From the NCBI GenBank assembly GCA_016432365.1, contig CP066686.1, positions 554,319 to 618,318 on the forward strand: a stretch of 64,000 bases of DNA, in the 5' to 3' direction. Origin of the DNA: Candidatus Woesebacteria bacterium. GTDB lineage: Bacteria > Patescibacteriota > Microgenomatia > UBA8517. Under the pieces are notes generated by a model. It made no database searches. It was not told the origin of the DNA and was given only the letters and a program-made list of their open reading frames with translations. The number at the start of each line of letters is the position of its first letter. Within the stretch, counting starts at the first letter, position 1. Below, one piece after another: positions 10,157 through 64,000 of the stretch. The translations under genes and the position numbers were made by a program.

Positions 10157-12211
10157 ATGATTAATACTATGCAAGATACGGCTGGAGGTTTGACCAAAAT
10201 AAATTTAGATAATGAATTGCCCAAACAAACAGAAGAACCTTCTATATTGGTTCCAAAAATAGAAGTTTTGCAAGAAAACGCCTCGCCAACAGTTCAGGTA
10301 GATAACACTCAAGATCACCCGCGAGTTAAGTCCGGTAAAACCAAAAAAGTTTGGTCAATAATTATGGTATTGCTTTTGGTTTTTCTGGTCTACAATCTTG
10401 TTGCTTGTTTCTTGGTCTATCAGAAAGGGGTTAAACTTGCTTCCTCGTTAAATCAACTTTCTAAAGATGCTCAAAGTAAAGATCTGGCAAAGTTAAAAAC
10501 TAGCCTTGAACAGGCGAACGTTAAATTGAACGATTTTCGGGTTGCTTATAAACTTATTTCCTGGGCTAAAATTTTACCCTTTGCAGGTCCTTATGTGAAA
10601 GATGGGGATCACGCGGCCACTGCCGCAAAGGCCGGAATTGAAGCTGGGCAGATTGTCGTTACAACAATCGAGCCCTATTCTGACTTATTGGGTTTGCAGG
10701 GCGGGGCTTCATCTGTCCTGGGGGCAAAAACCGGCGAACAGACCACCAGGGATAGGATAGATTTTATAGTGAAAACTATCCCGGACCTCTTGCCAAATAT
10801 AGATAATATTTCAGCAAAGGCAAAGATTGTAAGCGATGAAATTTCTCAAATCGACGCCGACAGATACCCGGAAGTTTACAAAGGCAAAAAAATTCGTTCC
10901 AAGATTAAAGCTGTTCAGGATTTGGCAATCGAAGCTTCAAGTTTCATTGTAAATGGCAAACCAATGCTTGAAAACGCCCCTTATCTTCTTGGAATGGACT
11001 CTCCACGAACGTACATGATACTTTTCCAGAACGATAAAGAGTTACGTCCAACTGGAGGTTTTATGACCGCTTATGCAGTGATGAAAGTCGACAAGGCTAA
11101 ATTCGAGCCCGTATCGTCAAACGATATATACAATTTAGACGCTCAGTATAAACCTTCGATTCGCGCTCCAGAGCCAATAATAAAATACATTAAAGGGCCC
11201 TATATACTTTCTCAGAATTTGCGCTTAAGGGACATGAATTGGTCACCTGATTTTAGTGTCAGCATGCAAACATTTACGAATGCAATTAGTAAGTTGGGGG
11301 TAGGTAGTATTGACGGAATTGTTGCGGTTGATACACAACTTCTTACCAACTTACTCGACGCAATTGGCCCAATCGGTGTACCCGGTTTCGGAAATTTCAG
11401 TTCAGAGACAGACCCGGAATGCAACTGCCCTCAGGTAATTCACGAACTTGAAAGCTTTGCGGATATTGAAGGTCCGATAATTTGGGATCCTTTGACCGGA
11501 AAAATAATATTGCGTCCGCCAAATTCGGATAACAGAAAAAAGATAATAGGCCCTCTTATGAATTCTATTTTGGCCAATGCCTTTGGCCAGCCCAAAGAAA
11601 AACTTCCGGCTCTTTTTGAGGCAGGTTTTAAGTCTCTAATTGAAAAACATGTCCTTTTCTATATGTTTGACCAGAAAGTGGAAGCAGCAATTTCGGATTT
11701 CGGGCTAGGTGGAACTATTAAAGATTACGAGGGCGATTATCTTCATATCAACGATGCGAATTTGGGCGGGCGTAAATCAAATCTTTATGCGACGGAGGAT
11801 GTAACTCAGGAGATTAAAATTGGTTCTGATGGAACAGTTACTAAAATTTTAACAATAACTTATAAAAATCCTGCGAAACATGATGGTTGGCTTAACTCGG
11901 TTCTTCCTACCTGGGTAAGGGTGTACGTACCTAAAGGGAGTACTCTTATAACCTCGGAAGGGTTAGATGCCAAGACCGATCCCTATGAAGATCTGGGCAA
12001 GACTGTTTTTGCCGGTTTTTTTCAGTTAAGACCTGAAGGGGTATCCAAAGTTACGTTTGAATACAAATTGCCATTTAAAGTTTCTAAAAATTACAAACTT
12101 TTGATTCAAAAACAGCCAGGCACAGACGGATTTTTATATTCAATAAAAATTGGAAAACGTGTAGAAGAATTTTTCTTAAAAACAGACAAGGAACTCAAAA
12201 TTGGAATTTAG
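10157..12211 (+). CDS. Large membrane-anchored extracytoplasmic protein of unknown function (possibly DUF4012 family)
   Basis: One N-terminal TM helix (IIMVLLLVFLVYNLVACFLVY) followed by about 600 aa of soluble domain. Position directly after a PGT matches the typical DUF4012 context. Assignment is from memory and is weak. Confidence 0.45.
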   Translation: MINTMQDTAGGLTKINLDNELPKQTEEPSILVPKIEVLQENASPTVQVDNTQDHPRVKSGKTKKVWSIIMVLLLVFLVYNLVACFLVYQKGVKLASSLNQLSKDAQSKDLAKLKTSLEQANVKLNDFRVAYKLISWAKILPFAGPYVKDGDHAATAAKAGIEAGQIVVTTIEPYSDLLGLQGGASSVLGAKTGEQTTRDRIDFIVKTIPDLLPNIDNISAKAKIVSDEISQIDADRYPEVYKGKKIRSKIKAVQDLAIEASSFIVNGKPMLENAPYLLGMDSPRTYMILFQNDKELRPTGGFMTAYAVMKVDKAKFEPVSSNDIYNLDAQYKPSIRAPEPIIKYIKGPYILSQNLRLRDMNWSPDFSVSMQTFTNAISKLGVGSIDGIVAVDTQLLTNLLDAIGPIGVPGFGNFSSETDPECNCPQVIHELESFADIEGPIIWDPLTGKIILRPPNSDNRKKIIGPLMNSILANAFGQPKEKLPALFEAGFKSLIEKHVLFYMFDQKVEAAISDFGLGGTIKDYEGDYLHINDANLGGRKSNLYATEDVTQEIKIGSDGTVTKILTITYKNPAKHDGWLNSVLPTWVRVYVPKGSTLITSEGLDAKTDPYEDLGKTVFAGFFQLRPEGVSKVTFEYKLPFKVSKNYKLLIQKQPGTDGFLYSIKIGKRVEEFFLKTDKELKIGI

Positions 12212-29441: not shown

Positions 29442-29971
29442 TGATTATCTTCAGTGGTTATTTTTGTAATGAACCCGAATTTTTCGTAAAGTTTTATTGC
29501 AAATTTGTTATCCCTTCTGGTGACAAGCCAAAATCCTTTTTGTTGAGACTCTAGATATTTATCGGATTTCATAAATTTTTCAAACGCGGCTCTCATAAGT
29601 TTTTCTGAATAACCCTGTCCCCTGGCTGGAGGATAAATTCTAATCGCAAACGTAAAAGGAAATTCTATTGCTTGTGGATTTGCTTTAAACGCAAACCAAG
29701 CTACGCCCAAAAGTTTTCCATTTTTATCACTTAATGTGTAAATATATTTACCCAACACCCATTTTTCAAAAGATTCCAGACTCTTAAATCTTTTGGCGTC
29801 ATGGGTGAATTTTCTGATCTGGGGATCGGACTTAGTGTAACTCAATAATTCCTGAACCTGATTTTTGGTTATTCCTAAAGAAACTATTTGGCCATGCATT
29901 TGGTATAATATACCACGAATGGGGAAAATTATTGGTATTACCGATGACTCCAGAAAGGTTAAACCAGGCAT
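29414..29971 (-). CDS. GNAT family N-acetyltransferase
   Basis: ARGQGYSEKLMRA...AIKLYEKFGF match GNAT motifs A/B. The true start may be the internal Met (MHGQIV), which would remove the overlap with murE. Confidence 0.7.
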   Translation of the reverse strand: MPGLTFLESSVIPIIFPIRGILYQMHGQIVSLGITKNQVQELLSYTKSDPQIRKFTHDAKRFKSLESFEKWVLGKYIYTLSDKNGKLLGVAWFAFKANPQAIEFPFTFAIRIYPPARGQGYSEKLMRAAFEKFMKSDKYLESQQKGFWLVTRRDNKFAIKLYEKFGFITKITTEDNHLLMTFSPS

Positions 29972-31952
29972 GGTTTTTGTCGCGGTTAAGGGTAAGACAA
30001 CTGACGGGCATAACTATATTGAAGAAGCTCTAAAAAATGGTGCGGAACATGTTTTTGGAGAAATGAATTTTAAAAATTCAAAATATACTAAGGTATCGGA
30101 CTCGAGGCAAAAACTAGGTGATTTAGCATCAGAATTTTACGAAAATCCCTCAAAAAAACTGAAGATTATTGGTGTAACCGGTACAAAAGGTAAGACTACC
30201 ACAACACATATTATTTACCATATTTTAACCGCTTTGAAAAAAAAGGCGGGAATGGTTTCCTCGAATATGGCAAGGATTGGAAACAAAGAAGTCGATACGG
30301 GGTTCCATGTAACAAGCCCTGATGTAATTTCACTTCATAAATTTTTAAAAGAAATGGTAGATGCCGGGTGTGAATATGCTGTAATTGAGGTCAGTTCACA
30401 CGGAATAGACCAGAAAAGAATTGCCGGGGTCGATTTTGAAGTCGGAGTTTTGACCAATATTGCTCCTGAACATCTGGATTATCACAAAACCTTCAGAGAA
30501 TATAGACGGGTCAAAATGTCATTTGTTAACTCGTGTAAATTTAAGGTTATTGCACCCAAAGAAACTACTACAAATATTCTTCCCGGAAAATTCAACAATT
30601 TGAATGTTGATGTGGCCGTTGAAACCGTAACAAAACTTGGCTTTGATAGAAAAAAAGCGTTGGGAACTTTGGAATCTTTCGAATTACCAAAAGGAAGATT
30701 GGACGAAATCAAAAACAATTTAGGTTTTAGAATAGTAATCGACTTCGCTCACACACCCGACTCGTTGGAAGCAGTACTCACATATTTGAGATCGGAACGT
30801 AAAGGCAAGGGGAAATTGATTTCTGTATTCGGATGCGCCGGGGAAAGAGATATCAAAAAAAGATTCAAAATGGGTAAAGTTTCAGTTAAACTGGCGGATT
30901 TTTCGGTATTTACCGCTGAGGATCCAAGGAGTGAGGATGTAAATGATATTTTGGCCAAAATGGTTGAAGGAGCAAAATCAGTTGGAGGGATCGATGGGAA
31001 AAACTTTGTCAGAATTCCGCTTCGAGGAGAAGCGGTTGCATTCGCACTTTCTATCGCAAAAAAGGGCGATATCGTAGGGTTTTTTGGAAAAGGGCACGAA
31101 ACCAGTATGGCATATAGCGCGTGTGACGCTTCAAGCAATGCTTGTAAAAGATTTGAACATCCTTGGAGTGATAGAACCGAAATTGAAAATTATTTACATG
31201 GAACGCCTGATGTCTCGGCGGTAATTTTGGCGGCAGGAAAAGGAACAAGAATGAGATCTCAATATCCGAAAGTCATTCATGAAATTTGTGGACGTCCGAT
31301 GGTTTCGTACACACTTGAGAACTTAAGAAAGGCCGGAATAATAGATATCACCGCGGTTGTTTCGTTTAGAAAAAACCTTGTAATTAATAGAATTAAAGGT
31401 GCTGTAAAAATTGCGTACCAGAAAAATCCAAAAGGAGGAACCGCTGATGCCGCTAAAGCAGGTTTCAAGCTGATTTCTCCAAACACTAAAACCCTCTTAA
31501 TCATAAACGGAGACGACAGCGCGTTTTACACCCCGGAAACGATTAAAAAAATTTTAGAAATCCACACAGATAGAGAGCGGAAACTTACATTTGTATCTTT
31601 GATGAAAGAAAATCCAACAGGATTGGGCCGTGTTATACGTAGACCCGACGGTCTTATTGCAAAAATTGTTGAGGAGAAAGACGCAACTGATGCAGAAAGA
31701 AAAATTAACGAAGTCAATGACGGCCTTTATGTTTTTGATAAAAAATGGTTCTCTCGTAATATAGAAAAAGTTAAGAAAAGTGCTCAGGGGGAATATTACC
31801 TGGTAGATTTGATTAAGCTTGCGATAGACCAGGGAGATAGAATGGCTACTTATACTTTACCGAATGATGACGAATGGCAGGGGATTAATACTCCGGAACA
31901 ACTTGCGGAAGCAAATAGGAAGATGGACAAGAAACTAAAAGGACATAATTAA
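29865..31952 (+). CDS. murE: Bifunctional fusion: MurE (UDP-MurNAc-L-Ala-D-Glu:diamino-acid ligase) + GlmU-type GlcNAc-1-P uridyltransferase domain (no acetyltransferase LbH domain)
   Basis: Residues about 19-440 are Mur ligase (GKIIGITDDSRK, GVTGTKGKTTTTHI, DFAHTPDSLEAVL, GKGHE). Residues about 445-695 are a nucleotidyltransferase domain AVILAAGKGTRMRSQYPKVIHEICGRPMV, close to the GlmU N-domain consensus (LAAGKGTRM...PKVLH). The ORF-track start is a TTG; the probable true start is the Met at about 29919. Confidence 0.8.
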   Translation: MVIPKETIWPCIWYNIPRMGKIIGITDDSRKVKPGMVFVAVKGKTTDGHNYIEEALKNGAEHVFGEMNFKNSKYTKVSDSRQKLGDLASEFYENPSKKLKIIGVTGTKGKTTTTHIIYHILTALKKKAGMVSSNMARIGNKEVDTGFHVTSPDVISLHKFLKEMVDAGCEYAVIEVSSHGIDQKRIAGVDFEVGVLTNIAPEHLDYHKTFREYRRVKMSFVNSCKFKVIAPKETTTNILPGKFNNLNVDVAVETVTKLGFDRKKALGTLESFELPKGRLDEIKNNLGFRIVIDFAHTPDSLEAVLTYLRSERKGKGKLISVFGCAGERDIKKRFKMGKVSVKLADFSVFTAEDPRSEDVNDILAKMVEGAKSVGGIDGKNFVRIPLRGEAVAFALSIAKKGDIVGFFGKGHETSMAYSACDASSNACKRFEHPWSDRTEIENYLHGTPDVSAVILAAGKGTRMRSQYPKVIHEICGRPMVSYTLENLRKAGIIDITAVVSFRKNLVINRIKGAVKIAYQKNPKGGTADAAKAGFKLISPNTKTLLIINGDDSAFYTPETIKKILEIHTDRERKLTFVSLMKENPTGLGRVIRRPDGLIAKIVEEKDATDAERKINEVNDGLYVFDKKWFSRNIEKVKKSAQGEYYLVDLIKLAIDQGDRMATYTLPNDDEWQGINTPEQLAEANRKMDKKLKGHN

Positions 31953-31953
31953 A

Positions 31954-33018
31954 ATGGAATCAACAGATGACATGGTTGAAGAGTACTTAAATCAGCCTCC
32001 CGTCGATCGAGAACTATCGATAAGATCTATCCGTTTAAACGAGTCGACCGTTGATAGTGGTTTTGTTGAGATTCCCGTTTTACCTCAAAGACCGGCGGTA
32101 AAGCCAGGTGAAGAAGATGCGTTTTTACTAAATACAAAGAAAACATTAAGAGATTTGAATATTTCGGAAACCGAGACTGTTTCTACAGAAGTCATAACAA
32201 TCGGTTTCCAGGAAAATATACCCGACGAGGTACGGGGTCCAGACCGGAGTGGAGAACAGTCTCTGAAAATATATAGTTTTCTGTCTCCAGAAAAAGTTAG
32301 CAAGGAAGGTTTAAAGGATGGGGTTCCTTTAGTAATTTTTAGTCATGGCGGAAAGATACATTCAGAAGTGATTGCGTCGAGTGGATACCTTCCAATGCTT
32401 TATGAAGATAATCCAGATATGATTTTAATTGCTATGGATCACAGAGGATCCCAGTCTCACAAAGCAAAAGAGGATTACGGTTTGGATGACCGTGTGGCTG
32501 ATATCCTCATTGCTCTCAAGTACACCCAAGATAATTTGGTTAAAGAATATGCAGATAAAGGCATTAAGTGGAATGGTAACATTATAATAATTGGAGACAG
32601 TATGGGGGGTGAAGTAGCTACAGTGGTAGCTGAAAAAGTCGGCGCCGACGGCCTGGTTTTAACTGAGCCGGCAGCTTATTCGGTATTTGCACATCATGTA
32701 AAATTCGGTCAAAAAAGTGAACAGGAACCAGTGTTTGGTGGAGAAAAAGGGGTTATTAAAACTAAATCTCCGGAAGACTCTTACGCCTTTGATTCAATCA
32801 AAAAATATGCCAATGAGCCAAACTCAAAAATTTTGATGATAAAAATGAAAAATGACAAAATTGTGGGTAGCGTCCCTGATAAATATATCGAAAGTATAAA
32901 CGAGACAGATCCACAAAAAATCGAAGTCTTAGAAGTTGAGGGGGGTCACGGGTCTACAACACCTGAGGAGGTTAGGAAGATATCAGGTTTTGTAAAGAGT
33001 CTGAAAGGTAAAAAATGA
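31954..33018 (+). CDS. Alpha/beta-hydrolase fold protein (serine hydrolase, GDSMGG nucleophile elbow) with an acidic about 110-aa N-terminal extension
   Basis: GxSxG motif IIIIGDSMGGEVA with HGG oxyanion-type motif upstream (VIFSHGG). No signal peptide. Translationally coupled to both neighbours: 1-nt gap upstream, ATGA overlap downstream. Confidence 0.65.
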   Translation: MESTDDMVEEYLNQPPVDRELSIRSIRLNESTVDSGFVEIPVLPQRPAVKPGEEDAFLLNTKKTLRDLNISETETVSTEVITIGFQENIPDEVRGPDRSGEQSLKIYSFLSPEKVSKEGLKDGVPLVIFSHGGKIHSEVIASSGYLPMLYEDNPDMILIAMDHRGSQSHKAKEDYGLDDRVADILIALKYTQDNLVKEYADKGIKWNGNIIIIGDSMGGEVATVVAEKVGADGLVLTEPAAYSVFAHHVKFGQKSEQEPVFGGEKGVIKTKSPEDSYAFDSIKKYANEPNSKILMIKMKNDKIVGSVPDKYIESINETDPQKIEVLEVEGGHGSTTPEEVRKISGFVKSLKGKK

Positions 33019-35207
33019 CAAAAAAAATTCATTTCGTTGGAATTGGGGGGAGCGGGATTTCGGGTGTGGGCAAATTGGCCGAAAAAATGGGTTACGAAGT
33101 CACGGGATGTGATGTGGAATCTTCCACGGCATATGCAAAAAATATATTTCAAGGACACAGCCCTCAACATTTAGAAGATACTGATTTGGTCGTCGCTTCT
33201 CCAGCTTTATATTTCAACAAAGAAACAATAGATGAGATTGAGGCGGCCCGAAAAGATAGTAAATTAATGACATGGCAGGAGTTTTTAGGCAGAATTCTTT
33301 TAAAAGACAAAAAAATAATTTGTATTGCTGGAACTCATGGTAAGTCTACTACCACAGCAATGGTCGGAAAACTTCTTATTGATAATGGCCTCGATCCGAT
33401 TGTGATGGTCGGTGCGTTTGTCCCAGAGTGGGAAGGGAACTCAAGATTTGGGGAAGGTGAATATGCAGTGATTGAAGCAGACGAATTTAATAATAACTTT
33501 CTTAATTACTATCCGGATATTGCAATCGTAAATAACATAGAATTTGATCATCCCGATTTTTTTAAAAATGAAGGGGAAGTTAGAGAAAGTTTTAAAAAAT
33601 TTGTTGGTAATCTAAAGGGTGAAAAGTTGTTAATTACAGAGGGTGATAGTTTAGGAAAGAAATTCAATTTAAAAATTTTAGGCGAACACAACCAAAAAAA
33701 CGCTAATATGGTTTTTTTGTTAGGTAAGGCATTGGGAATAGATGAAGACAAGATTGTTACTTCGATCGAAAATTTTAAAGGGATTGGTAGGCGACTCGAA
33801 CTAATTGCGGATCGAGACGGGGTTAAGGTTTTTGATGATTATGCTCATCATCCGACAGCGATTAAGACAACGGTTGATGGGTTAAGGGAGGAATATCCCA
33901 AGGCAAAAATTTTAGCAATTGACGAGCCACACGGTTATAAAAGAACGAAAGCGCTTCTTGAAAATTATAAAGGTGTTTTTGATAGTGCAGACAAGGTCAT
34001 TATTGGCCCAATTTTTAAAGCAAGAGATGAAGTTGATCTATCCATTTCGCCGGAATCTGTTGCAAAAGCATCAGCTCATCGAGATATACAAACAGTCGGT
34101 AGTTTGGAAGAATTAATTAATAATTTAAAATTAATAATTAAAAATTTCGATATAGTTGTAGTTATGGGCGCAGGTAAAAGTTATTTGTGGGCCAGAGAAA
34201 TCGCCAGAATTTTACCAGTTAAATTTTCAGATATTACATCCTTTAAAATAGGTGGCAAGATAAAAAAATATTTTGAAGTAAGGACTAAGAACGAGATCGA
34301 TGAAGCTGTTAAATTTGCGAGTAATAACAATTTACCCATTTTTATTATCGGGGACGGAACAGATATTTTAGCATCAGATAAGGACTTTAATGGCATTGTT
34401 GTTAAATATGTAGGTAATAACATTGTTATCGATGATGATGGGAGTGCAACTGCCGAGGCTGGTGCGAATTGGGATAAATTTGTCGAGGAAGCTGTTACCC
34501 AGGGCTTTCAAGGTATTGAAAATTTATCCGGGATTCCCGGAACAGTCGGGGCAGCTCCGATTCAAAATATTGGGGCTTACGGATCGGAGTTAGATGATAG
34601 GTTCATAAGCCTTGAGGCATACGATTTAGAAAAAAGCAAGATAATTACTTTTTCTAAAAGCGATTGTAAATTTGGATACCGCGAAAGCATTTTCAAAAAA
34701 AGCAGCTATTGGCAGAAATTTGTGATTTTAAAAATAAAACTAAAGCTTATTAAAAATCAATTCGGAACGGCAAATTACGAATCATTAAAGAGATATATAA
34801 ATTCAAAAAAACCCACAATTCAAGAAATCCGTGATGCTGTATTAAAAGTGAGGTCCGAAAAATTAGAAAACCCAAAAGTAGTCGGAAATGCAGGTTCGTT
34901 TTTTAAGAACCCGATAGTTACTGCACAAGATAAAGAGAAGCTGGAAATAAAGTTACCCGGCATTAAAATTTTTCCATTTGGAGATAAATTTAAAATATCT
35001 GCTGGATGGTTGATTGAGTCGACAGGGTGGAAAGGTAAAGAATATAAAAACGCGGCGGTTTCTTCTAAACACGCGCTAATATTAATTAACAAAACTGGTA
35101 CAGCTACGGCAAAAGAGATCTACGATTTATCTGAGGAAATAATCAACGATGTCTCTAAAAAATTTGGGATTAAGCTAGAAAGAGAAGTTCAATTAATTAA
35201 TTTTTAA
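33015..35207 (+). CDS. murC: Bifunctional fusion: MurC (UDP-MurNAc:L-Ala ligase) + MurB (UDP-GlcNAc-enolpyruvate reductase)
   Basis: N-terminus KIHFVGIGGSGISGVGKLAEKMGYEVTGCD and IAGTHGKSTTTAM are MurC. C-terminal about 300 aa (KIGGKIKKYFEV...NLSGIPGTVGAAPIQNIGAYG...) is the MurB FAD-binding and substrate domain. Confidence 0.85.
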   Translation: MTKKIHFVGIGGSGISGVGKLAEKMGYEVTGCDVESSTAYAKNIFQGHSPQHLEDTDLVVASPALYFNKETIDEIEAARKDSKLMTWQEFLGRILLKDKKIICIAGTHGKSTTTAMVGKLLIDNGLDPIVMVGAFVPEWEGNSRFGEGEYAVIEADEFNNNFLNYYPDIAIVNNIEFDHPDFFKNEGEVRESFKKFVGNLKGEKLLITEGDSLGKKFNLKILGEHNQKNANMVFLLGKALGIDEDKIVTSIENFKGIGRRLELIADRDGVKVFDDYAHHPTAIKTTVDGLREEYPKAKILAIDEPHGYKRTKALLENYKGVFDSADKVIIGPIFKARDEVDLSISPESVAKASAHRDIQTVGSLEELINNLKLIIKNFDIVVVMGAGKSYLWAREIARILPVKFSDITSFKIGGKIKKYFEVRTKNEIDEAVKFASNNNLPIFIIGDGTDILASDKDFNGIVVKYVGNNIVIDDDGSATAEAGANWDKFVEEAVTQGFQGIENLSGIPGTVGAAPIQNIGAYGSELDDRFISLEAYDLEKSKIITFSKSDCKFGYRESIFKKSSYWQKFVILKIKLKLIKNQFGTANYESLKRYINSKKPTIQEIRDAVLKVRSEKLENPKVVGNAGSFFKNPIVTAQDKEKLEIKLPGIKIFPFGDKFKISAGWLIESTGWKGKEYKNAAVSSKHALILINKTGTATAKEIYDLSEEIINDVSKKFGIKLEREVQLINF

Positions 35208-55759: not shown

Positions 55760-57745
55760 TTATTTGTGAAACTTGTTGAAATATCTCCAGAAGTCGAACC
55801 CAGGTTTGGAGGAATGTGTATCTTTGGGTTCCCCTTTATCGGTTAAAATATCTTCTTCTGGATTCTCTGAACTAAATTCAATAAGTTTAATTTTTTGTTT
55901 TAAACCTTTAAATTTATATTCTTTGTATAAAGTTTTTCCATTGGGAAGGAATTGGGCTACAATAAAAGAAGTAGTATCCGAGGTTGGGATTATTTGTAGT
56001 CGATAATCGCCATCGTTGGGATTCATAATGGCTACCATTCCGTTATCACTTTGGATGGTGGTACCGTTTTTGTCAGTTACCCAAAAATTTCCCGGGTATC
56101 CAACAAGGACTAAAGCAGAAGCCGGATCCAAATATGGTGGGTCTGCAATTCCCGGGGAACCAAAAAATTCTAAAATTTTGCTTACTCCTTCTGTTGACGC
56201 GATAATTCCCGAGTGAGATTGATTTATGACCTCGTTAGAAGTTGCGCCCGGAATTTGTGCACTATCAACTAAAACCATACCGTCGCCTTCATTAACATTT
56301 TCTTTTCTGATAGGTTTTCCGTCCGGCCATGAAGAATTTTTGATAACATCAATTATCTTTAAAGTGGATTTCCCAGTTCCAGCAAGTGTTCCCACCTTCA
56401 CTCCCCAAAATGGACTAACAAAGTTTGTTGGTAAATAATCATTTTTTGTTTTCATGGTATTAACATCTTTTAATTCACTTGTTTTGAAGTCCCTTAAGTA
56501 GTCATATATTGGAAGCATATTTTTAAACGATGCTGGAACACCACAGTGCTTGAATAGCAATGTCGCAGCAATCCTCTCAACCAGATCGTTTGCCCAAATT
56601 TCTCCACCAACGACCGCCGGGTAGGCGAGTGCCAGACCTTTATGAGGGCTCCCAACGGTTAGTAGTTTTGAGGCCTTACCGCCGTTTTGATTTTCCAGAT
56701 AACTTCTACCTATTAAACCTCCAAGACTGTGACCAACAATATCCACCTTTTCATTTACGTCGACATTTGAATTTATAAAGTTAGAAAAAAGCGCTGAGTT
56801 TTCCGGGACTTGTTTTCTCCAGTCATAGTTAAAAGTAGTTAGGTCCCAACCCGCGGAAGCTAATGAACTTAATAGTTGTGAATATACATTTTTTGCGTAT
56901 GGTGCCATTGTCCAACTTCCGGAATAACCCGAGTCTTTACAGTTTATTAACGCATCGACATTCCAACTGGCCCCTGTTCCCGGAATTAAAAAAACTTTTG
57001 TAACTGGTGTAGGAGTTGGAGATGGTGTAGGTGTTGGGGTAGGAGTGGGGGTGGGGGAGGGCGATGGACTAGGTGAAGGAGTTGGAGTTTCCGTCGGAAT
57101 TTCGGTTACAACAACATTGTCAAACCAGACTTCGGATAAAGAGGCCCCGGTTGTTATGGCAAGCCCAATTTTACCTGAAAGGATTGGATTATTATCATCT
57201 ATATAATCTATCGTTGGAGTAGGGTTGTTGGCAATAAAAACTCTTATTCGATTACCAACTAAAAGTATTCGAAAATGCGTGACGGTGTTATCAGGCAGGG
57301 AAATGGCGTAATTAACTGGTTCGAATCCCTCATTTAGGATCCACTTTTGGAGCCATATGCGATTTGGATACATGTGCAGCGAGTAGGTTATGGGCATATC
57401 TAGGCTTGGATTAGCCAACGATCTCTGAGGTGTGACTCTGAAAAAGACGTTTCTATCAATTCCGCTGATAGGCAACATATCAAATGAAAATTCGTAATCA
57501 GACCAGTTAAAATCACCACCTTCAACTTCTGAGATTGAAGATGAACTATTCAGATTTAAACCGTACCGCATACTACCTTGGATAAAGCTTCTTTGCCAGT
57601 TACCATGGATGACTGACCATTGGGAAGTGTTGTCTGTCTCAAAATTGTCTTGGAATAAAATATTCTGAGCCTTCGTCAATTTAGGAGCAGACAGGAATAA
57701 TATACCTAAAAATACTACAACAACAAAACGAAATATAAGTTTCAT
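55760..57745 (-). CDS. Secreted multidomain lipase/esterase: signal peptide, ConA/LamG-like jelly-roll domain, (PT/PS)n linker, alpha/beta-hydrolase lipase domain (GHSLGG), C-terminal beta-rich domain
   Basis: N-terminal signal peptide (LGILFLSAPKLTKA). Linker TPTPSPSPSPSPTPTPTPTPTPSPTPTP. Nucleophile elbow VDIVGHSLGGLIGRSY, typical of lipase class 2/PGAP1-like enzymes. Confidence 0.7.
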   Translation of the reverse strand: MKLIFRFVVVVFLGILFLSAPKLTKAQNILFQDNFETDNTSQWSVIHGNWQRSFIQGSMRYGLNLNSSSSISEVEGGDFNWSDYEFSFDMLPISGIDRNVFFRVTPQRSLANPSLDMPITYSLHMYPNRIWLQKWILNEGFEPVNYAISLPDNTVTHFRILLVGNRIRVFIANNPTPTIDYIDDNNPILSGKIGLAITTGASLSEVWFDNVVVTEIPTETPTPSPSPSPSPTPTPTPTPTPSPTPTPVTKVFLIPGTGASWNVDALINCKDSGYSGSWTMAPYAKNVYSQLLSSLASAGWDLTTFNYDWRKQVPENSALFSNFINSNVDVNEKVDIVGHSLGGLIGRSYLENQNGGKASKLLTVGSPHKGLALAYPAVVGGEIWANDLVERIAATLLFKHCGVPASFKNMLPIYDYLRDFKTSELKDVNTMKTKNDYLPTNFVSPFWGVKVGTLAGTGKSTLKIIDVIKNSSWPDGKPIRKENVNEGDGMVLVDSAQIPGATSNEVINQSHSGIIASTEGVSKILEFFGSPGIADPPYLDPASALVLVGYPGNFWVTDKNGTTIQSDNGMVAIMNPNDGDYRLQIIPTSDTTSFIVAQFLPNGKTLYKEYKFKGLKQKIKLIEFSSENPEEDILTDKGEPKDTHSSKPGFDFWRYFNKFHK

Positions 57746-57816: not shown

Positions 57817-58545
57817 ATGAAGATTTATGAGGGTTACCACAAAGACCGTAAACCGCAAACACGAATCATTACAAGAAATGATTTCACCTATCATACGATC
57901 CTGTCTTATTTGTCAAAATATGTTAATAAAAAGAAAGAAGTATTGGATATTGGATGTGGGGTAGGAGCAGTTGATTTATATTTGGGTAACCTAGGAGTTA
58001 GTGTGTTGGGAATAGATATATCTAAAAATGGCATTGCAATCGCTAAGGAAAATGCCAAACATTTAGGGGTTGCTCATTTTGTGAAATTTACAATAATGGA
58101 TTTTCCAAGAAGATTGCCAAAAAAACAGTTCGATTTGGTAATTTGTTCTGAGGTTTTAGAGCATATAGTTAACGATAAAAGTGCTGTAGAAAAGATTTTC
58201 AAACTATTAAAGACCGGCGGAGTGGTAATTGCTTCTTCCCCCTCAGAAAATGCGCCGCTTTATCGAATGGGTGTATTAAGAAAATTTGAACAGAAGGTTG
58301 GGCATCTACGTCGGTATTCAGTAAAGAATTTTAGTCGTATGTTTACGGCTTCAGGATTTGAAATCTTAGAAACTAAAAAAACAGAAGGGTTACTAAGGAA
58401 TTTTCTATTTACAAATTTTTTTGGTGGTTTTCTATTGCGGATATTGAATAAATGGCCATTTTCAGAAATAGTGACATTTTTAGACGATATCACAGTCCCG
58501 ATTTTTGGAGAGTCTAATATTTATATAGTTGCTAAGAAAAAATGA
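57817..58545 (+). CDS. Class I SAM-dependent methyltransferase
   Basis: Motif I VLDIGCGVGAV, post-I LGIDIS, motif II LVICSEVLEH. Confidence 0.8.
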   Translation: MKIYEGYHKDRKPQTRIITRNDFTYHTILSYLSKYVNKKKEVLDIGCGVGAVDLYLGNLGVSVLGIDISKNGIAIAKENAKHLGVAHFVKFTIMDFPRRLPKKQFDLVICSEVLEHIVNDKSAVEKIFKLLKTGGVVIASSPSENAPLYRMGVLRKFEQKVGHLRRYSVKNFSRMFTASGFEILETKKTEGLLRNFLFTNFFGGFLLRILNKWPFSEIVTFLDDITVPIFGESNIYIVAKKK

Positions 58546-59459
58546 ACATCCTATTTCTTACCAGGCTTTATCATCCACACATTGGCGGGGTGGAAAAACA
58601 CGTTTTCGAAGTAGCTAAGAGTTTAGAGCGAAAAGGGAAAAGTGTAACTATACTAACGGAAAAATTTGACTCAAAACTGAAAGATCAGGAAACGACTAAG
58701 GGAATAAAAGTTGTAAGATTTTCTTATCCTCACATAAAATTCTTTGGGCTTATATTTATTTGGTTGGAAATATTTAAAAATAGAAAACTGATTCAAGATG
58801 CAGACGTAGTTCATATCCACGATGTTTTTATTTGGTATTTGCCGTTTAGGTTTTTATTTCCGAGAAAGCCCGTATTTACGACGATTCACGGGCTGGAGTG
58901 GGACAATCCATTATCAAGGTCCGGTGTTTGGCAAAAAAGGCTCGCCGTTAGGCTTTCAACGGGGACGGTCGGGGTTGGTAAATTTTTAGAAAAATACTTG
59001 AAAATTAAATTTAATAAAATAATTTATGGTGCCACAATATTAATACATAACAATATAGTTAAAGATAAAAATGAAATTGTATATGTAGGAAGGTTGGAAA
59101 AAAATACAGGTTTGCTAAAGTTCCTGGAATGGTTAGATAGAAATTCGAAATATGAAGTTGATTTTTGTGGGGATGGTCGGCTTAGAAAAGAGTGCGAACA
59201 ATATGGAAAAGTACACGGGTTCACTGACCCGATCCCTTTTTTTAAAAAAGCAAAATATTGTGTCCCCGGAGGATATTTGGCGGCATTTGAAGCAAAGGCA
59301 TATGGTTGTGAGTTAAAGCTATTCGGAAATAGTAAAATAAAGGAAGACTATTGGAAGATGTCTCCTTTTACTGGTCCTGAAGTTAAAAAGTGGGTAAAGT
59401 CTCAAACTTGGGACAACTTGGCAAATGAATATCTCGATCTGTATTACAACACTAAATGA
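58542..59459 (+). CDS. GT4-like glycosyltransferase (short, 305 aa)
   Basis: N-terminus MNILFLTRLYHPHIGGVEKHV is GT4-like. The C-domain is shorter than usual. Confidence 0.55.
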   Translation: MNILFLTRLYHPHIGGVEKHVFEVAKSLERKGKSVTILTEKFDSKLKDQETTKGIKVVRFSYPHIKFFGLIFIWLEIFKNRKLIQDADVVHIHDVFIWYLPFRFLFPRKPVFTTIHGLEWDNPLSRSGVWQKRLAVRLSTGTVGVGKFLEKYLKIKFNKIIYGATILIHNNIVKDKNEIVYVGRLEKNTGLLKFLEWLDRNSKYEVDFCGDGRLRKECEQYGKVHGFTDPIPFFKKAKYCVPGGYLAAFEAKAYGCELKLFGNSKIKEDYWKMSPFTGPEVKKWVKSQTWDNLANEYLDLYYNTK

Positions 59460-60369
59460 AGAAGATTCGGTAGAGCGGCTTCTAGACTCTCTTTTGATGC
59501 AATCAAAAAAACCTGATCAGATTATTATTGTTGATGGTGGTTCCCAGGATAAAACAGTCGAAATAATCAGGCATTATCAAAAAAAAGACGGTCGTATTAA
59601 ACTTCTTGTCGAAAAATGTTCAAGGGCCAGAGGCCGTAATTTGGGTGTTGAAATTGCCATAGGTGAGATTGTTCTAATGACCGATGCCGGTTGTGTAGCT
59701 TCACCCGATTGGGTTAAGAATATTGTTTCTCCCTTTGAGAATGCAGGAGTGGACGTTGTGGCTGGATTCTACAAAATGGTGTCAAACAACTTTTTTCAAA
59801 AGGCAGAGTCGGTGTTTTTGGGTACTAGGCCAAACGACTTCGATGTTAATTTTTTACCTTCGACACGCTCAATCGCCTTTACTAAACAAATTTGGGAAAA
59901 AGTCGGAGGTTTTCCTGAAAGCGTAAAGGGAGCAGCGGAGGATACTATTTTCAATTACAAATTGTTGAAAGCAGGAGCTAGGATTTCACGCATGAAAAAT
60001 GCAGTTGTAGGGTGGGGGATGCCAGGGTCGATCAAGGACTTCAGATCAAAGATCTATGAATATGCAAAGGGCGATGCAAAATCAAAAATTTGGATATTTC
60101 CCGGAAAAGGATTTACGTCGCACAATATTAAAGTGCTTTTTGTTGCCTTCCGCTACCTAGCTGGCTTTTCATTATTAGTATTTACTTTCAAATTTCATTT
60201 CCTACTTCCCTATTTGTTTATATGCGTTTTTGCTTATTTGATTTTTGCTTTTCGGAAAATCTATTTAGAATTTCGCGATTGGAGAGTTGCCGTTTGGGGA
60301 CCATTTCTTCAAATTGTTTCCGATCTTGGTGTCACGGGAGGGTTTGTATCAGGTATACTTAACAGGTAA
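59425..60369 (+). CDS. Glycosyltransferase family 2 with C-terminal TM segments
   Basis: ISICITTLNEEDSVERLLDSL...IIIVDGGSQDKT GT2 signature. Hydrophobic C-terminus. Confidence 0.8.
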   Translation: MNISICITTLNEEDSVERLLDSLLMQSKKPDQIIIVDGGSQDKTVEIIRHYQKKDGRIKLLVEKCSRARGRNLGVEIAIGEIVLMTDAGCVASPDWVKNIVSPFENAGVDVVAGFYKMVSNNFFQKAESVFLGTRPNDFDVNFLPSTRSIAFTKQIWEKVGGFPESVKGAAEDTIFNYKLLKAGARISRMKNAVVGWGMPGSIKDFRSKIYEYAKGDAKSKIWIFPGKGFTSHNIKVLFVAFRYLAGFSLLVFTFKFHFLLPYLFICVFAYLIFAFRKIYLEFRDWRVAVWGPFLQIVSDLGVTGGFVSGILNR

Positions 60370-61589
60370 TGGGTTATTTTAAGGATACATTAAAAGGTCT
60401 AAGCTGGATGACGGCTTTTAGGGTCCTGTACCGTATTATTGGTGTTGTACGGATTGCAATCATTGCACACATCCTCACCCCTTTTAGTTTAGGAGTGTTT
60501 GGAATTGTTACCATAGTTCTAGGATTTTTGGAGATAATTACGGAAACGGGAATTAACATTTTTCTTATTCAGGAAAAGGAGGATATTGATAACTACATAG
60601 ATACGGCGTGGGTTGTTTCCATAATCCGCGGTTTTTTAATCTCCGTACTAATTTTTGTTGCAGCAGCCCCCATTTCAGGTTTTTTCAATTCGCCGGGATC
60701 GAAGACCCTTTTATATATCGCTTCTTTAGTACCGTTAATTCGCGGTTTGATTAACCCATCAATCGTTAAATTTCAAAAGGAGTTACTATTCAATAAAGAA
60801 TTTTTATACAGAGTTTCGGTCTTTTCAGTTGAATGTCTCGTCTCGGTATTGGGTGTGATTATTTTAAAATCTGCATTAGGGATGGTTTGGGGACTGGTGG
60901 CGAGTGCCGCATATGAGGTTGTTTTTACATTTGCTGTCGCCAAACCTTGGCCGAAGTTTAATTTTGACGCAGTTAAAACCAGGCGAGTGATCGAAAGGGG
61001 GAAATGGGTAACACTTTTCGGGATTTTTGATTATTTTTATACTCAAAGCGACAATGTCGTTGTTGGTAAGATTTTGGGTGTTGCCCCACTTGGTATTTAT
61101 CAAAATGCTTATAAAATTTCCACAGCTCCTCTAACTGAAGTTGGTGATATTTTCTACAGAGTAACATTCCCTATTTTTTCTAAGATTTCGGGTGACGCGG
61201 CAAGGCTTAAATCTGCTTTTATCAAAAACACTGTAACGAATTTTGTTTTAATGACTTCTGCCGGAATAATTGTTTTTATTTTTGCCGGCCCAATAGTCAG
61301 TATTCTTTTTGGAAAAGGGTGGGAGGGCGCTATCCCTGTGGTAAAACTTCTTTCTATACTTGGTGTTGTCCGCGGAGTGGCCAGTTCGACAAACTCGTTA
61401 TTAGTTGCAAAAGAAAAGCAAAAATATTCGGCAATAATTACGATTGTTAGTACGCTTGGTCTTTGGGTGACGATTATTCCACTTACGAAAGCTTACGGAA
61501 TAATAGGAGCCGGGATGTCTGCCATCGTAGGAACCCTAATCTCACTTCCATTTACAGTCTATTTTATATTTAAAACACTTAAGACCTGA
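60369..61589 (+). CDS. wzx: Wzx-type polysaccharide flippase (MOP/PST family)
   Basis: 406 aa, about 12 TM, topology and size match polysaccharide-biosynthesis Wzx proteins. Sits inside the glycan locus. Confidence 0.7.
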   Translation: MGYFKDTLKGLSWMTAFRVLYRIIGVVRIAIIAHILTPFSLGVFGIVTIVLGFLEIITETGINIFLIQEKEDIDNYIDTAWVVSIIRGFLISVLIFVAAAPISGFFNSPGSKTLLYIASLVPLIRGLINPSIVKFQKELLFNKEFLYRVSVFSVECLVSVLGVIILKSALGMVWGLVASAAYEVVFTFAVAKPWPKFNFDAVKTRRVIERGKWVTLFGIFDYFYTQSDNVVVGKILGVAPLGIYQNAYKISTAPLTEVGDIFYRVTFPIFSKISGDAARLKSAFIKNTVTNFVLMTSAGIIVFIFAGPIVSILFGKGWEGAIPVVKLLSILGVVRGVASSTNSLLVAKEKQKYSAIITIVSTLGLWVTIIPLTKAYGIIGAGMSAIVGTLISLPFTVYFIFKTLKT

Positions 61590-62337
61590 AAGGAACAAAA
61601 TGTTTCTTAAAAGAAAGAAGATCTTCTTCAAGTGGAATTTTAATGTCTGAATCTACGAATGAATTCGGTGGCAGATTTGCTTTTCCTTTCTCGTTAACAA
61701 AGTTGCTCGGCTGAATCAATTTTCGATCAACGTCAAAAGTTTTAGCCACTTTTATTGCAAATTTGTACTTGGATATTTTTCTTTCGGTAAAAATATTAAG
61801 TATTCCTTTTTTATCTCTGTTTTTGTAAATTTCCTCAATCAACCGATTTATGGATACAGGGTTAAAGAAAGCGTTTTTGTAGGCATTTGTAACGTTACCC
61901 GAAACCAGAGATTTGATAATGTAATATTTATTGCTGTAAAAACTTGTTCTAATTACCAGATTTTTTGACTTATCGATAAGTTTTTCACTTATTAGTTTGG
62001 AATATCCATAAACATTAGTTGGATTAACTGCATAGTCTGAGGAAAGGTGTATTAATTTTTTGTTATATTTTCGGGAAAGTGTGTCCAAATTCCGAACGGA
62101 AATGGAGTTAACATTAAAACATTCTTCAGGGTTTTTCTCGGCGTATCCAATATCGGTAATTGCGGCGCAATTGATTATGTAGTGTGCATCGGATTTTTGG
62201 ATTACTTTTTCTAAAATCTTAATATCTGTTATATCGCACTTGCTTTTGTTCAAAGAAACGCACCTTTCCTTGTAAGTTTGAGTAAAATATTTGGCTAGTG
62301 TTGATTCTCCACCGAGAATCAGAAAATCTTTGGTCAT
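61579..62337 (-). CDS. RmlD-like NDP-4-keto-6-deoxyhexose reductase (dTDP-4-dehydrorhamnose reductase family)
   Basis: MTKDFLILGGESTLA Rossmann start, CAAITDI, catalytic YGYSK. About 250 aa from the internal Met (the ORF-track start is 15 codons earlier). Confidence 0.7.
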   Translation of the reverse strand: MTKDFLILGGESTLAKYFTQTYKERCVSLNKSKCDITDIKILEKVIQKSDAHYIINCAAITDIGYAEKNPEECFNVNSISVRNLDTLSRKYNKKLIHLSSDYAVNPTNVYGYSKLISEKLIDKSKNLVIRTSFYSNKYYIIKSLVSGNVTNAYKNAFFNPVSINRLIEEIYKNRDKKGILNIFTERKISKYKFAIKVAKTFDVDRKLIQPSNFVNEKGKANLPPNSFVDSDIKIPLEEDLLSFKKHFVPFRS

Positions 62338-62384
62338 GGCAATTTGAGAGAATGTTAGCACAAAATTTGGTAAACTACACACGA

Positions 62385-63641
62385 ATGATTAAGAAAGAGG
62401 TAAAAATAGGAAAATTCAAAAAGAGAAAAACTTGCAGATTTTGCAAAAGCCGTAAGTTGATTAAATTTCTTGATTTTGGCCACATGCCCCACGCTGGCAA
62501 CTATCTTAAACCCAAGGAGGTGGGGAAAGAGTATTATTACCCCCTGAGAATTTTCTTTTGTAAGAACTGTGGCTTAATTCAAAACCTGGACATTATTTCT
62601 TCCGAGACATTATTTAAAAATTATCACTACTTGTCATCGGTAAGTTTAACTAAGCATTTTCAGGAATATGCCAAGGAAGTAAAAAAGAAATTTTTGAATA
62701 AAAATTCCTTTATCGTGGAAATTGGCAGTAATGACGGTGTTTTACTTTTGCCGCTTTCAAAAATGGGTTTTAAAGTTCTCGGGGTTGATCCGGCTGTCAA
62801 TGTTGGAAGAATTGCCAAGAAAAAAGATCTGGATATTATTGTTGATTATTTTGGAGTTAAAGTGGCTGACAATATTGTAAAGAAAAATGGAAAAGCTGAT
62901 TTAATTTTGGCAAATAATGTTTTGGCACATATCGATGATATGAACAATGTTTTTAAGGGTATAGGTAAACTTCTTAAGGACGACGGCGTGCTAATTTTTG
63001 AAGTCCACTATTTCCCCGACCTATTAAAGCGGCTTCAATACGACTTTTTCTACGGTGAACACCTGAGTTACTACAACGTGTCGACATTGATAACATTTTT
63101 AAATAAATACAATCTGGAAATATTCGATGTTAAAAAGATGCCTATACACTCCGGTTCAATACGTGTATACGCTAAATTTAAAGGTAACAACAGATTAAAG
63201 ACAAAAGCCGGTGTTTTGAAATTGGTGAAGTATGAAGATGATTTGGATCGTGTTGATGAAAAAATTTTGGAAAACTTTAATTTAAAAATTGATAAGCACA
63301 GATCAGATATAAAAAAATTATTAATGGATATCAAAAAGGGCGGCTCAAGGATCGTGGGCTATGGGGCCGGGGGGCGTGCAAACACTTTTTTGTGCTCTTG
63401 TGATGTCAATAACGACCTTTTGGATTATATAGTTGACGAATCACCAGAAAGACAGGGGAAGTTTACTCCTGGAACACACATTCCGATTGTTTCGCCGGAA
63501 ATATTTAGAAAAGATAAAGTAAAATATGTACTACTTCTTGCATGGAATTATAAAAAAGAAATAATTAAAAAAGAGCAAGCTTTTGCAAAAAATGGAGGTA
63601 AATTTATTGTCTCGTTTCCTAAAATACATCTAGTCCATTAA
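62385..63641 (+). CDS. NDP-hexose C-methyltransferase (TcaB9/TylC3/NovU family: Zn-ribbon + SAM MTase + C-MT C-terminal domain)
   Basis: CRFC...CKNC zinc ribbon, FIVEIGSNDG SAM motif, IHSGSIRVYA, IVGYGAGGRANTF, FTPGTHIPIV, LLLAWNYKKEIIKKEQAF...GG. Each corresponds to segments of TcaB9 (recalled from memory). Start taken at the Met 13 residues before the first Cys. Confidence 0.75.
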   Translation: MIKKEVKIGKFKKRKTCRFCKSRKLIKFLDFGHMPHAGNYLKPKEVGKEYYYPLRIFFCKNCGLIQNLDIISSETLFKNYHYLSSVSLTKHFQEYAKEVKKKFLNKNSFIVEIGSNDGVLLLPLSKMGFKVLGVDPAVNVGRIAKKKDLDIIVDYFGVKVADNIVKKNGKADLILANNVLAHIDDMNNVFKGIGKLLKDDGVLIFEVHYFPDLLKRLQYDFFYGEHLSYYNVSTLITFLNKYNLEIFDVKKMPIHSGSIRVYAKFKGNNRLKTKAGVLKLVKYEDDLDRVDEKILENFNLKIDKHRSDIKKLLMDIKKGGSRIVGYGAGGRANTFLCSCDVNNDLLDYIVDESPERQGKFTPGTHIPIVSPEIFRKDKVKYVLLLAWNYKKEIIKKEQAFAKNGGKFIVSFPKIHLVH

Positions 63642-63644
63642 AAA

Positions 63645-64000
63645 ATGAAGAAAAACATTGAAGTTTCAGTAATTGTTGGGCACTACGGTAGAGGAAGTGA
63701 AGTTTACAAGTGCTTGGATAAACTCAAAATAATCAAATCGAAATTTAAATCTGTTGAATTCATTTTGGTGGACAACAACGATGCCAAACTTGAGAAAAAT
63801 ATATTTAAGAGAAAATATTCTTGGGTAAAATACATCCCCTCTCCAAAAAATTTAGGATGGGGGGCGGGACGAAATTTAGGAATCAAACACTCGACCGGAA
63901 AGTATATTTTTTCTATCGACTCGGATATACTTATCGATCTTCAATCCTTTAATAATATTTACGATATCTTGAAAAAAGATGGCAAAATTGGGATGGTGAT
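63645..64000 (+). CDS. Glycosyltransferase family 2 (N-terminal part; runs off the window end)
   Basis: ATG at 63645 is 3 nt after the upstream stop. VSVIVGHYGRG...FILVDNNDAK...GWGAGRNLG...DSD are GT2 motifs. No stop before the window end. Confidence 0.6.
   Translation, partial: MKKNIEVSVIVGHYGRGSEVYKCLDKLKIIKSKFKSVEFILVDNNDAKLEKNIFKRKYSWVKYIPSPKNLGWGAGRNLGIKHSTGKYIFSIDSDILIDLQSFNNIYDILKKDGKIGMV

Follow-up and report, generated by a model that had tools for sequence, protein, structure and literature searches.

A Woesebacteria sugar C-methyltransferase whose relatives are partnered by UDP-GlcNAc-type dehydratases, in a surface-glycan locus that lacks the dehydratase

Sugar C-methyltransferases of the TcaB9/TylC3 family carry out a chemistry that requires a 4-keto group adjoining the carbon to be methylated (PMC3539893). 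A 2023 review describes 3-C-methyl-branched monosaccharides as "quite uncommon" (PMC9912281), and examples include 3-C-methyl-mannose in H. pylori and 3-C-methyl-rhamnose in P. trifolii (PMC9912281; PMC5644692). For the virenose of Coxiella burnetii, a pathway proposed in silico comprises a TylCIII-like methyltransferase (CBU_0691), Gmd or RmlB, and a 4-ketoreductase (PMC3539893). Here we describe a C-methyltransferase of this family and a short RmlD-like reductase, encoded divergently in a glycan locus at the end of a 64,000-nucleotide stretch (hereafter the window) of a Candidatus Woesebacteria metagenome-assembled genome, whose 1,078,985-bp contig encodes both proteins (QQG41195.1 and QQG41194.1). 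The explanation of the whole that we favour, with moderate confidence, is a functional surface-glycan cluster for a C-methyl-branched 6-deoxy sugar, derived from an ancestral module of the uridine diphosphate N-acetylhexosamine (UDP-HexNAc) type from which the dehydratase has been lost. The two genes and the spacer between them are as follows; scores here and below are against Pfam profiles, with NCBIfam/TIGR models where named.

61579-62337 (open reading frame to 62382), minus strand: predicted short RmlD-like nucleoside diphosphate (NDP)-4-keto-sugar reductase, 252 amino acids, QQG41194.1 (PF04321, 91.5 bits)
62338-62384, no strand: divergent spacer of 47 bp between reductase and C-methyltransferase, read from the sequence
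62385-63641, plus strand: predicted NDP-4-keto-sugar C-methyltransferase, 418 amino acids, QQG41195.1 (PF08421, PF13489 and PF08484)

Judged by its profile matches and conserved residues, the 62385-63641 product is a genuine sugar C-methyltransferase and can be assigned securely to the TcaB9/TylC3 family. All three domains that a sequence-only reading of the window had assigned to it are matched: a zinc ribbon (PF08421, 68.7 bits against a cut-off of 31.3, residues 17-77, the whole profile), a methyltransferase domain (PF13489, 77.0 bits, residues 93-246) and the C-terminal C-methyltransferase domain on which that assignment turned, which is complete (PF08484, 160.7 bits against a cut-off of 23.5, residues 253-412, profile positions 1-160 of 160). 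End-to-end matches were obtained to the solved enzymes MtmC (4rv9, E = 2.2e-78), KijD1 (5t6b, 3.9e-70) and TcaB9 (3ndi, 5.3e-69), with 32% identity to MtmC and 31% to KijD1. The zinc cysteines Cys17, Cys20, Cys59 and Cys62, forming two CxxC pairs, align with those of MtmC and KijD1. Tyr80, His182, Tyr223, Glu225 and His226, which we take to be Tyr76, His181, Tyr222, Glu224 and His225 of TcaB9, are the same in MtmC and KijD1 and are kept in 84-85 of the 85 aligned family members, and Gly114 of the EIGSNDG motif is invariant in all 85. The database titles are "class I SAM-dependent methyltransferase" (SAM, S-adenosylmethionine) for QQG41195.1 and "sugar nucleotide-binding protein" (252 amino acids) for QQG41194.1.

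The start of the reductase is most likely the ATG at 62337, giving a protein of 252 amino acids, because the NCBI call and the orthologs agree on it. No Shine-Dalgarno sequence is obvious on either side of the 47-bp spacer when the sequence is read. The description of this protein as an RmlD-like 4-ketoreductase, paired divergently with the C-methyltransferase, holds up, and the coupling of the two is backed by fusion proteins in other genomes. It exceeds the cut-off of PF04321 (91.5 bits against 27) and misses the equivalog cut-off of TIGR01214 (91.9 bits against 224.05), placing it in the RmlD-like family but not among RmlD equivalogs. Its best solved relative is a 273-amino-acid RmlD-like protein of S. 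tokodaii (2ggs, E = 1.5e-18). Ser99, Tyr110 and Lys114 are invariant among the orthologs and more typical homologs, the roughly 13-residue loop preceding the YxxxK motif is lacking, and the glycine motif GGESTLA (Rossmann GGxSxLAK, a GxxSxxA variant) is common to the ortholog in locus L012, which is 63% identical and adjoins a PseB-like dehydratase gene. The 4,6-dehydratases are marked by an Asp-Glu, Asp-Lys or Ser-Glu pair (motif table of PMC8987622); the signature here is SSDY...YxxxK without such an acid/base pair, so that we read the protein as a reductase rather than a dehydratase in disguise. We also considered, and rejected, the possibility that it is a truncated PseB-type dehydratase (PF02719, 65 bits), given that it has SSDY where TDK would be expected and that, among solved structures, it matches RmlD-like reductases best.

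Syntenic loci of other Woesebacteria are flanked by genes for a signal peptidase, inosine monophosphate dehydrogenase, a lipase-like protein and the flippase Wzx on one side, and on the other by a fusion of a family 2 glycosyltransferase (GT2) domain with PMT_2, a small gene, Wzy_C and a Big-domain gene. L011/L015 (a 982-kb chromosome), L012, L017, L018 and L096 all carry, beside the pair, a PseB-like short-chain dehydrogenase/reductase (SDR) of 337-338 amino acids. This protein belongs to the PF02719 family, scores 366-370 bits against TIGR03589 (PseB), just under the cut-off of 407.75, and matches H. pylori FlaA1 (2gn4, E = 5.2e-79), followed by CapE, FnlA-type and CapD structures. Among its 120 best homologs the dehydratase signature is TDK...MxxxK in 94 and TDK...YxxxK in 21, both of which occur among UDP-N-acetylglucosamine (UDP-GlcNAc) dehydratases (PMC8987622).

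The association extends well beyond these loci. We counted dehydratase genes within 10 kb of the C-methyltransferase in the 49 species-representative loci having at least 5 kb of sequence on both flanks. A PseB-like dehydratase is present in 28 of the 49 (two of which also have an RmlB-like gene), Gmd-like is the only dehydratase in 4, RmlB-like only in 2, and none is found in the remaining 15. Over all 80 loci a PseB-like gene is within reach in 40, at a median distance of 1.5 kb from the C-methyltransferase, and approached from the other side, at least 24 of the top dehydratase homologs pair with C-methyltransferase homologs on contigs of equal size. Fusions tie the activities together more directly. 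In P0097 an RmlD-like domain is joined to the C-methyltransferase with a PseB/FnlA-like gene directly upstream, and P0372, a protein of 1,100 amino acids, has the order RmlD_sub_bind, Polysacc_synt_2, C-methyltransferase. The three-gene module is complete in L011, L012, L017, L018, L096, L009 and P0372. Fusion to extended SDR domains, at either end of the C-methyltransferase, is a recurrent arrangement seen in P0372, P0387, P0393, P0395, P0396, P0457, P0483, P0386 and P0398.

In a neighbour-joining tree of 85 sequences, built without bootstrap, the enzymes of the window (L001), L013 and L014 nest within those of L012, L015, L016, L017 and L018, whose loci all carry PseB-like genes where the flanks are adequate. 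The enzymes encoded in RmlB-RmlA-RmlD operons branch separately, in a clade adjoining KijD1, an enzyme acting on deoxythymidine diphosphate (dTDP) sugars. Taken together, the tree, the neighbourhoods and the fusions indicate that the natural pathway of the clade consists of a PseB-like dehydratase, the C-methyltransferase and the RmlD-like reductase, most plausibly running on UDP-GlcNAc. The sequence-only reading had expected precursor supply by RmlAB or Gmd, and this expectation is not borne out by the enzyme's position in the PseB/FnlA-like-associated clade of the unbootstrapped tree. We found no report in the literature of a C-methyltransferase in a UDP-GlcNAc-dehydratase pathway. In the 982-kb Woesebacteria genome the region at L011 11183-17324 additionally encodes, next to the reductase, a TylF-like methyltransferase, a UDP-glucose dehydrogenase and an SDR of the UXS/ArnA-like kind, which hints at further sugar variants, possibly including a 4-keto-pentose branch.

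The dehydratase gene has gone from the locus in three genomes, those of the window, of L007/L014 (83% identical) and of GW2011_GWB1_39_10 (L013). In the window the Wzx and reductase genes run into each other by 11 bp at their stops (61589 and 61579, respectively), leaving no scar and no room for a dehydratase gene. Both remaining frames are intact in the three genomes at a synonymous divergence (dS) of about 0.8-1.4. In three pairwise comparisons among these dehydratase-less genomes the C-methyltransferase has a ratio of nonsynonymous to synonymous substitution (omega) of 0.065-0.083 and the reductase one of 0.10-0.14, as compared with 0.04-0.095 for Wzx, 0.058 for Obg and 0.077 for Ddl, all values being approximate because dS is near saturation. 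Intact frames under purifying selection mean that the two genes are in use, and the reading of the pair as a relic therefore fails. The idea of a non-functional remnant, decaying without substrate since the dehydratase was deleted, is very improbable: it can draw on the absence of the gene at the locus in all three genomes and of an ortholog from the 1.08-Mb contig among the best 120 homologs, but is contradicted by frames that have stayed open over this divergence, by omega values (0.065-0.14) like those of housekeeping genes and by the retention of every catalytic residue.

Since the pair is in use without a linked dehydratase, something else must supply the 4-keto sugar. The supplier could be an unlinked, non-orthologous dehydratase, for example Gmd acting on guanosine diphosphate (GDP)-mannose provided by the ManC-like gene at 8312-9466, or conceivably something more unusual. 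We considered one candidate nearby, a GalE-like SDR of 313 amino acids encoded about 8.7 kb outside the window on its upstream side (L010 1015-1956), and rejected it as the missing enzyme; it scores 174 bits against TIGR01179, matches T. maritima GalE at 6e-54 and has SSSSIYG without an Asp/Glu or Asp/Lys pair.

Most likely the pair is functional and supplies a surface glycan with a C-methyl-branched 6-deoxy sugar. The C-methyltransferase would bind an NDP-4-keto-6-deoxyhexose, take a proton beside the 4-keto group and move the methyl group of SAM to the deprotonated carbon, which is C3 in all characterised relatives and might be C5 here. The short RmlD-like reductase would then reduce the 4-keto group with NAD(P)H to give an NDP-activated C-methyl-branched 6-deoxy sugar, and the co-transcribed GT2-PMT_2 protein and other transferases are predicted to place it in a cell-surface glycan. 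In the relatives the first enzyme of the module would be the PseB/FnlA-like UDP-GlcNAc 4,6-dehydratase. Because phylogeny and gene neighbourhood place the pair in a PseB-like module, the ancestral product was most likely a UDP-linked C-methyl 2-acetamido-2,6-dideoxyhexose and not a dTDP or GDP sugar; genes for UDP-GlcNAc supply, GlmS and a fusion of MurE with the N-terminal part of GlmU, are present in the window. With the dehydratase deleted from the locus, the 4-keto substrate would come from an unlinked enzyme other than a PseB-like ortholog.

Several observations weigh against this account. All characterised members of the family use dTDP sugars (PMC3539893), and the case for a UDP-HexNAc substrate is drawn entirely from neighbourhoods and fusions in other genomes. 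The 93 kb that we annotated through identical Logan contigs, from -19.6 kb to +73.6 kb in window coordinates, holds no 4,6-dehydratase and no RmlA, RmlB, RmlC or Gmd, and its only other extended SDR is the GalE-like protein. A search with the L012 dehydratase returned no ortholog from the 1,078,985-bp contig among the best 120 matches, which reach down to 52% identity and are not exhaustive; the same search did recover the partners on the 982-kb, 878-kb, 140-kb and 113-kb contigs. To these must be added the near-saturated dS behind the selection estimates, the reductase score below the RmlD equivalog cut-off together with its atypical glycine motif, and a single-sequence AlphaFold model of the reductase that is unusable, with a predicted local distance difference test score (pLDDT) of 36.

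The alternative that survives best is the pathway first envisaged for the locus, in which dTDP-4-keto-6-deoxyglucose or GDP-4-keto-6-deoxymannose from an unlinked RmlAB or Gmd would be converted to a 3-C-methyl-6-deoxyhexose resembling virenose or evalose. The characterised enzymes do work on dTDP sugars, and for the virenose of Coxiella a GDP-based route has been put forward (PMC3539893). A ManC-like GDP-mannose pyrophosphorylase gene lies in the window, members of the family stand beside Gmd in L030, L032, L039, L079 and L090, RmlB-RmlA-RmlD-C-methyltransferase operons occur in the candidate phyla radiation (CPR) genomes L049, L068, L070, L073 and L078, and loss of the PseB-like gene from a pair still under selection fits a switch of precursor. 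We nevertheless consider this route unlikely. The absence of RmlA, RmlB, RmlC and Gmd from the window had been noted correctly in the sequence-only reading, as annotation of the window proteins showed, and it extends over the whole 93 kb; the enzyme nests in the PseB-associated clade and neither in the RmlB clade nor in the Gmd-associated DPANN clade; and the reductase is orthologous, at 63% identity, to the one beside the PseB-like gene in L012.

A more doubtful proposal is that in this subclade the enzymes have been repurposed for another substrate, the C-methyltransferase perhaps with a ketoreductase activity of its own as in MtmC. The new substrate might be a 4-keto pentose or, the organism being a presumed episymbiont, a 4-keto sugar that it obtains from its host. 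The best solved match, MtmC (2.2e-78), was deposited as a D-mycarose 3-C-methyltransferase and is also reported to have 4-ketoreductase activity (PMC3539893), the L011 module stands beside UDP-glucose dehydrogenase and UXS/ArnA-like genes that could make a UDP-4-keto-pentose, and the neighbourhood of the locus yielded no dehydratase. On the other side, the 93 kb contains no UDP-glucose dehydrogenase or UXS-like gene, and the active-site residues are the same as in the dehydratase-bearing relatives. We know of no nucleotide-sugar uptake system in bacteria, which counts against a host-derived precursor.

The sequence-only reading had regarded C-methylation of a deoxysugar as unexpected in a small-genome organism, a view at odds with the distribution of the family. 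A word-indexed search, in which 8,000 candidates were scored, gave at least 4,272 C-methyltransferase clusters (90% identity) at E<=1e-20, and an exhaustive search at E<=1e-30 gave 3,637 representatives of 50% identity clusters. Two peptide patterns alone recovered 495 relatives among Genome Taxonomy Database (GTDB) species representatives, a scan that was made without the source genome itself and in which the closest entry was GW2011_GWB1_39_10 at 83% identity. The best 80 of the 495 are mostly Woesebacteria, other CPR bacteria (Levybacteria, Gottesmanbacteria, Kaiserbacteria, Saccharibacteria and Parcubacteria) and DPANN archaea (Woesearchaeota, Aenigmatarchaeota, Iainarchaeum and AR10), followed by Pelagibacteraceae, Planctomycetota, Omnitrophota and others. 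No paper on a sugar C-methyltransferase in Patescibacteria/CPR was found in the literature, and the presence of the enzyme in CPR is undescribed rather than surprising. The organism names of L014, L016, L017 and L018, which are titled "uncultured Gammaproteobacteria bacterium", look wrong, as these loci are syntenic with, and 56-83% identical to, those of Woesebacteria.

The three-enzyme module (TDK...MxxxK dehydratase, TcaB9-like C-methyltransferase and short reductase) is found in CPR, DPANN and many other phyla, sometimes as one polypeptide, and is biochemically uncharacterised. We tentatively suggest that this widespread module makes a C-methyl 2-acetamido-2,6-dideoxyhexose and that the present subclade draws its 4-keto precursor from a new source, either a non-orthologous enzyme or a host intermediate, though we would not yet call this probable. 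No description of a C-methyl-branched 2-acetamido-2,6-dideoxyhexose was found in the literature for any glycan. C-methyl sugars are rare in characterised surface glycans, yet the enzyme family is common in genomes, above all in the ultra-small CPR and DPANN, which attach to hosts by way of their cell surfaces. Should the PseB-linked module make a C-methyl HexNAc derivative, this would be a new and widespread class of monosaccharide and a possible surface marker of uncultured lineages. The family assignment itself is routine; what sets the case apart is the pathway context, in a clade that couples to a UDP-GlcNAc-type dehydratase and a short RmlD-like reductase, and a pair under selection without its dehydratase. 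Annotators should bear in mind that enzymes of this clade are naturally partnered by a UDP-GlcNAc dehydratase and not by RmlAB or Gmd.

The setting of the pair, supposed from the start to be a glycan locus, is of the Wzx/Wzy type by its gene content. All seven genes that were originally listed for it are at their coordinates and each is matched by Pfam; besides the pair they are:

57817-58545, plus strand: class I SAM-dependent methyltransferase, 242 amino acids (PF13489, 80.5 bits)
58542-59459, plus strand: short family 4 (GT4)-like glycosyltransferase, 305 amino acids (PF13439, 64.5 bits)
59425-60369, plus strand: GT2 glycosyltransferase, 314 amino acids, with a hydrophobic C-terminal tail (PF00535, 97.1 bits)
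60369-61589, plus strand: Wzx-type (MOP family) flippase, 406 amino acids (PF13440, 205.8 bits)
63645-64000 and past the window end, plus strand: start of a GT2-PMT_2 (GT-C) fusion, 752 amino acids in full (PF00535, 58.9 bits on the in-window fragment)

The identical Logan contig L001 shows that the locus runs about 9 kb past the window, through the rest of the GT2-PMT_2 gene, a 191-amino-acid gene, Wzy_C (PF04932) and a convergent Big-domain gene, so that Wzx and Wzy_C are accompanied by GT4, GT2 and GT2-PMT_2 transferases. Wzx scores 173 bits against NF007773, below its cut-off of 273, and the C-terminal PF00534 match of the GT4-like protein (17.7 bits) is likewise under the cut-off. By tblastn the GT4-like gene is 64-79% identical in relatives (dN/dS 0.136) and the 314-amino-acid GT2 gene 51-85% identical (dN/dS 0.110). 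The GT2-PMT_2 gene lies 4 bp downstream of the C-methyltransferase, and in L007, L011-L015, L017 and L096 it again follows the C-methyltransferase, either directly or with one gene between. Going by domain content alone, the fusion protein may act on the C-methylated sugar, perhaps by way of a polyprenyl-phosphate intermediate as ArnC/ArnT do.

The 242-amino-acid methyltransferase had no tblastn match at 1e-10 in 10 related loci, including sisters that are 83-84% identical, and is a strain-specific accessory gene in a variable slot, which another methyltransferase takes up in L011 and L096. Its product is possibly an O-methyltransferase of the glycan. In comparison with L007 (window 58542-64000 together with L001 11261-15233), dS is 0.13 for the 191-amino-acid gene, 0.65 for GT2-PMT_2, 0.80 for the GT4-like gene and 1.4-1.7 for the C-methyltransferase, Wzx and Wzy_C. 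The 191-amino-acid product is 91% identical in L007/L014 and only 58% identical in L013, and this pattern and the uneven dS suggest recent recombination within the locus. Immediately upstream, at 55760-57745 on the minus strand, is a gene for a 661-amino-acid secreted lipase/esterase-like protein with LCAT, Palm_thioest and PGAP1 matches and a long Pro/Thr/Ser linker. Identity to the syntenic protein of L007 is only 39%, against 72-91% for the neighbouring genes, and the protein looks like a fast-evolving surface protein. Downstream, at L001 16846-18289 (about 69.2-70.7 kb in window coordinates, past its end), two open reading frames of 392 and 60 amino acids without a Pfam match lie between NAD_binding_1 and Ddl-like genes and are absent from the 83% relative L007.

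An initiating phosphoglycosyl transferase is missing from the locus, and the only one that we saw belongs to a first glycan locus at the other end of the window, which occupies positions 1-12211 and reaches to about -13.7 kb upstream (L010, L094), some 26 kb in total. This first locus has a second Wzx, three PMT_2 GT-C proteins, Wzy_C, several GT2 and GT4 transferases, two methyltransferases and a WcaF-like acetyltransferase, as well as a GalE-like epimerase, the ManC-like gene, Bac_transf and DUF4012; it has no dehydratase. Genes in the window for initiation and for precursor supply include the following:

8312-9466, plus strand: ManC-like mannose-1-phosphate guanylyltransferase, GDP-mannose supply, first glycan locus (TIGR01479, 280.6 bits for the GMP domain only, cut-off 373; PF00483, PF22640)
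9479-10129, plus strand: small polyprenyl-phosphate glycosylphosphotransferase, Bac_transf, first glycan locus (PF02397; TIGR03025, 246 bits)
29919-31952, plus strand: MurE fused to the GlmU uridyltransferase domain, 677 amino acids, UDP-GlcNAc supply (TIGR01085, 412 bits; GlmU N-terminal domain 208-215 bits, residues 433-674)

A further fusion, of a Mur ligase with MurB (730 amino acids), is encoded at 33015-35207.

Like RmlD, the dTDP-4-dehydrorhamnose reductase, the Woesebacteria reductase has PF04321, the Ser/Tyr/Lys triad and an STDY-type signature. It differs in its length of 252 amino acids (about 290-300 in RmlD), in the missing loop before YxxxK, in its GGxSxLA motif, in its score of 92 bits against a threshold of 224, and in its company, there being no rmlA, rmlB or rmlC partner in the 93 kb, whereas its orthologs adjoin PseB-like dehydratases. 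The GT2-PMT_2 protein recalls the two-step transfer systems ArnC/ArnT and GtrB/GtrC, in which a GT2 enzyme acts with a GT-C enzyme via a polyprenyl-phosphate sugar; here GT2 and an ArnT-like GT-C (PMT_2) are fused, an arrangement that is kept in relatives, and the likeness is one of domain content, the GT2 domain of the fusion matching no specific NCBIfam model above cut-off.

Pathways to UDP-2-acetamido-2,6-dideoxy-L-hexoses include that of PseB/FlaA1 and those in which FnlA/CapE or WbvB works together with WbvR, an RmlD-like reductase. In the relatives of the Woesebacteria locus a PF02719 UDP-GlcNAc 4,6-dehydratase stands with an RmlD-like 4-reductase, following the logic by which UDP-N-acetyl-L-rhamnosamine (UDP-L-RhaNAc) is made. 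The known pathways have no C-methyltransferase, and at the present locus it is the dehydratase that is absent. The dehydratases of the module are mostly of the TDK...MxxxK type (94 of 120), whereas the signature of PseB is TDK...YxxxK.

TcaB9, KijD1, MtmC, TylC3 and EryBIII, the 3-C-methyltransferases of actinomycete antibiotic deoxysugars, have the same three-domain build, zinc cysteines and catalytic residues as the Woesebacteria enzyme, and equal chemistry, SAM-dependent methylation beside a 4-keto group, is to be expected. The Woesebacteria enzyme is only 31-32% identical to KijD1 and MtmC, is encoded in a Wzx/Wzy surface-glycan locus and not in an antibiotic cluster, and belongs to a clade that goes with PseB-like UDP-GlcNAc dehydratases instead of RmlB. 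The nearest surface-glycan precedent is the proposed virenose pathway of Coxiella, where a TylC3-family C-methyltransferase likewise serves a surface polymer, lipopolysaccharide, and not an antibiotic, and where the ketoreductase and precursor steps are, as in the present case, only partly assigned. The route proposed for Coxiella begins with dTDP-glucose or GDP-mannose and has a recognisable 4,6-dehydratase; the Woesebacteria locus has none in the surrounding 93 kb, and its relatives point to a dehydratase of UDP-GlcNAc.

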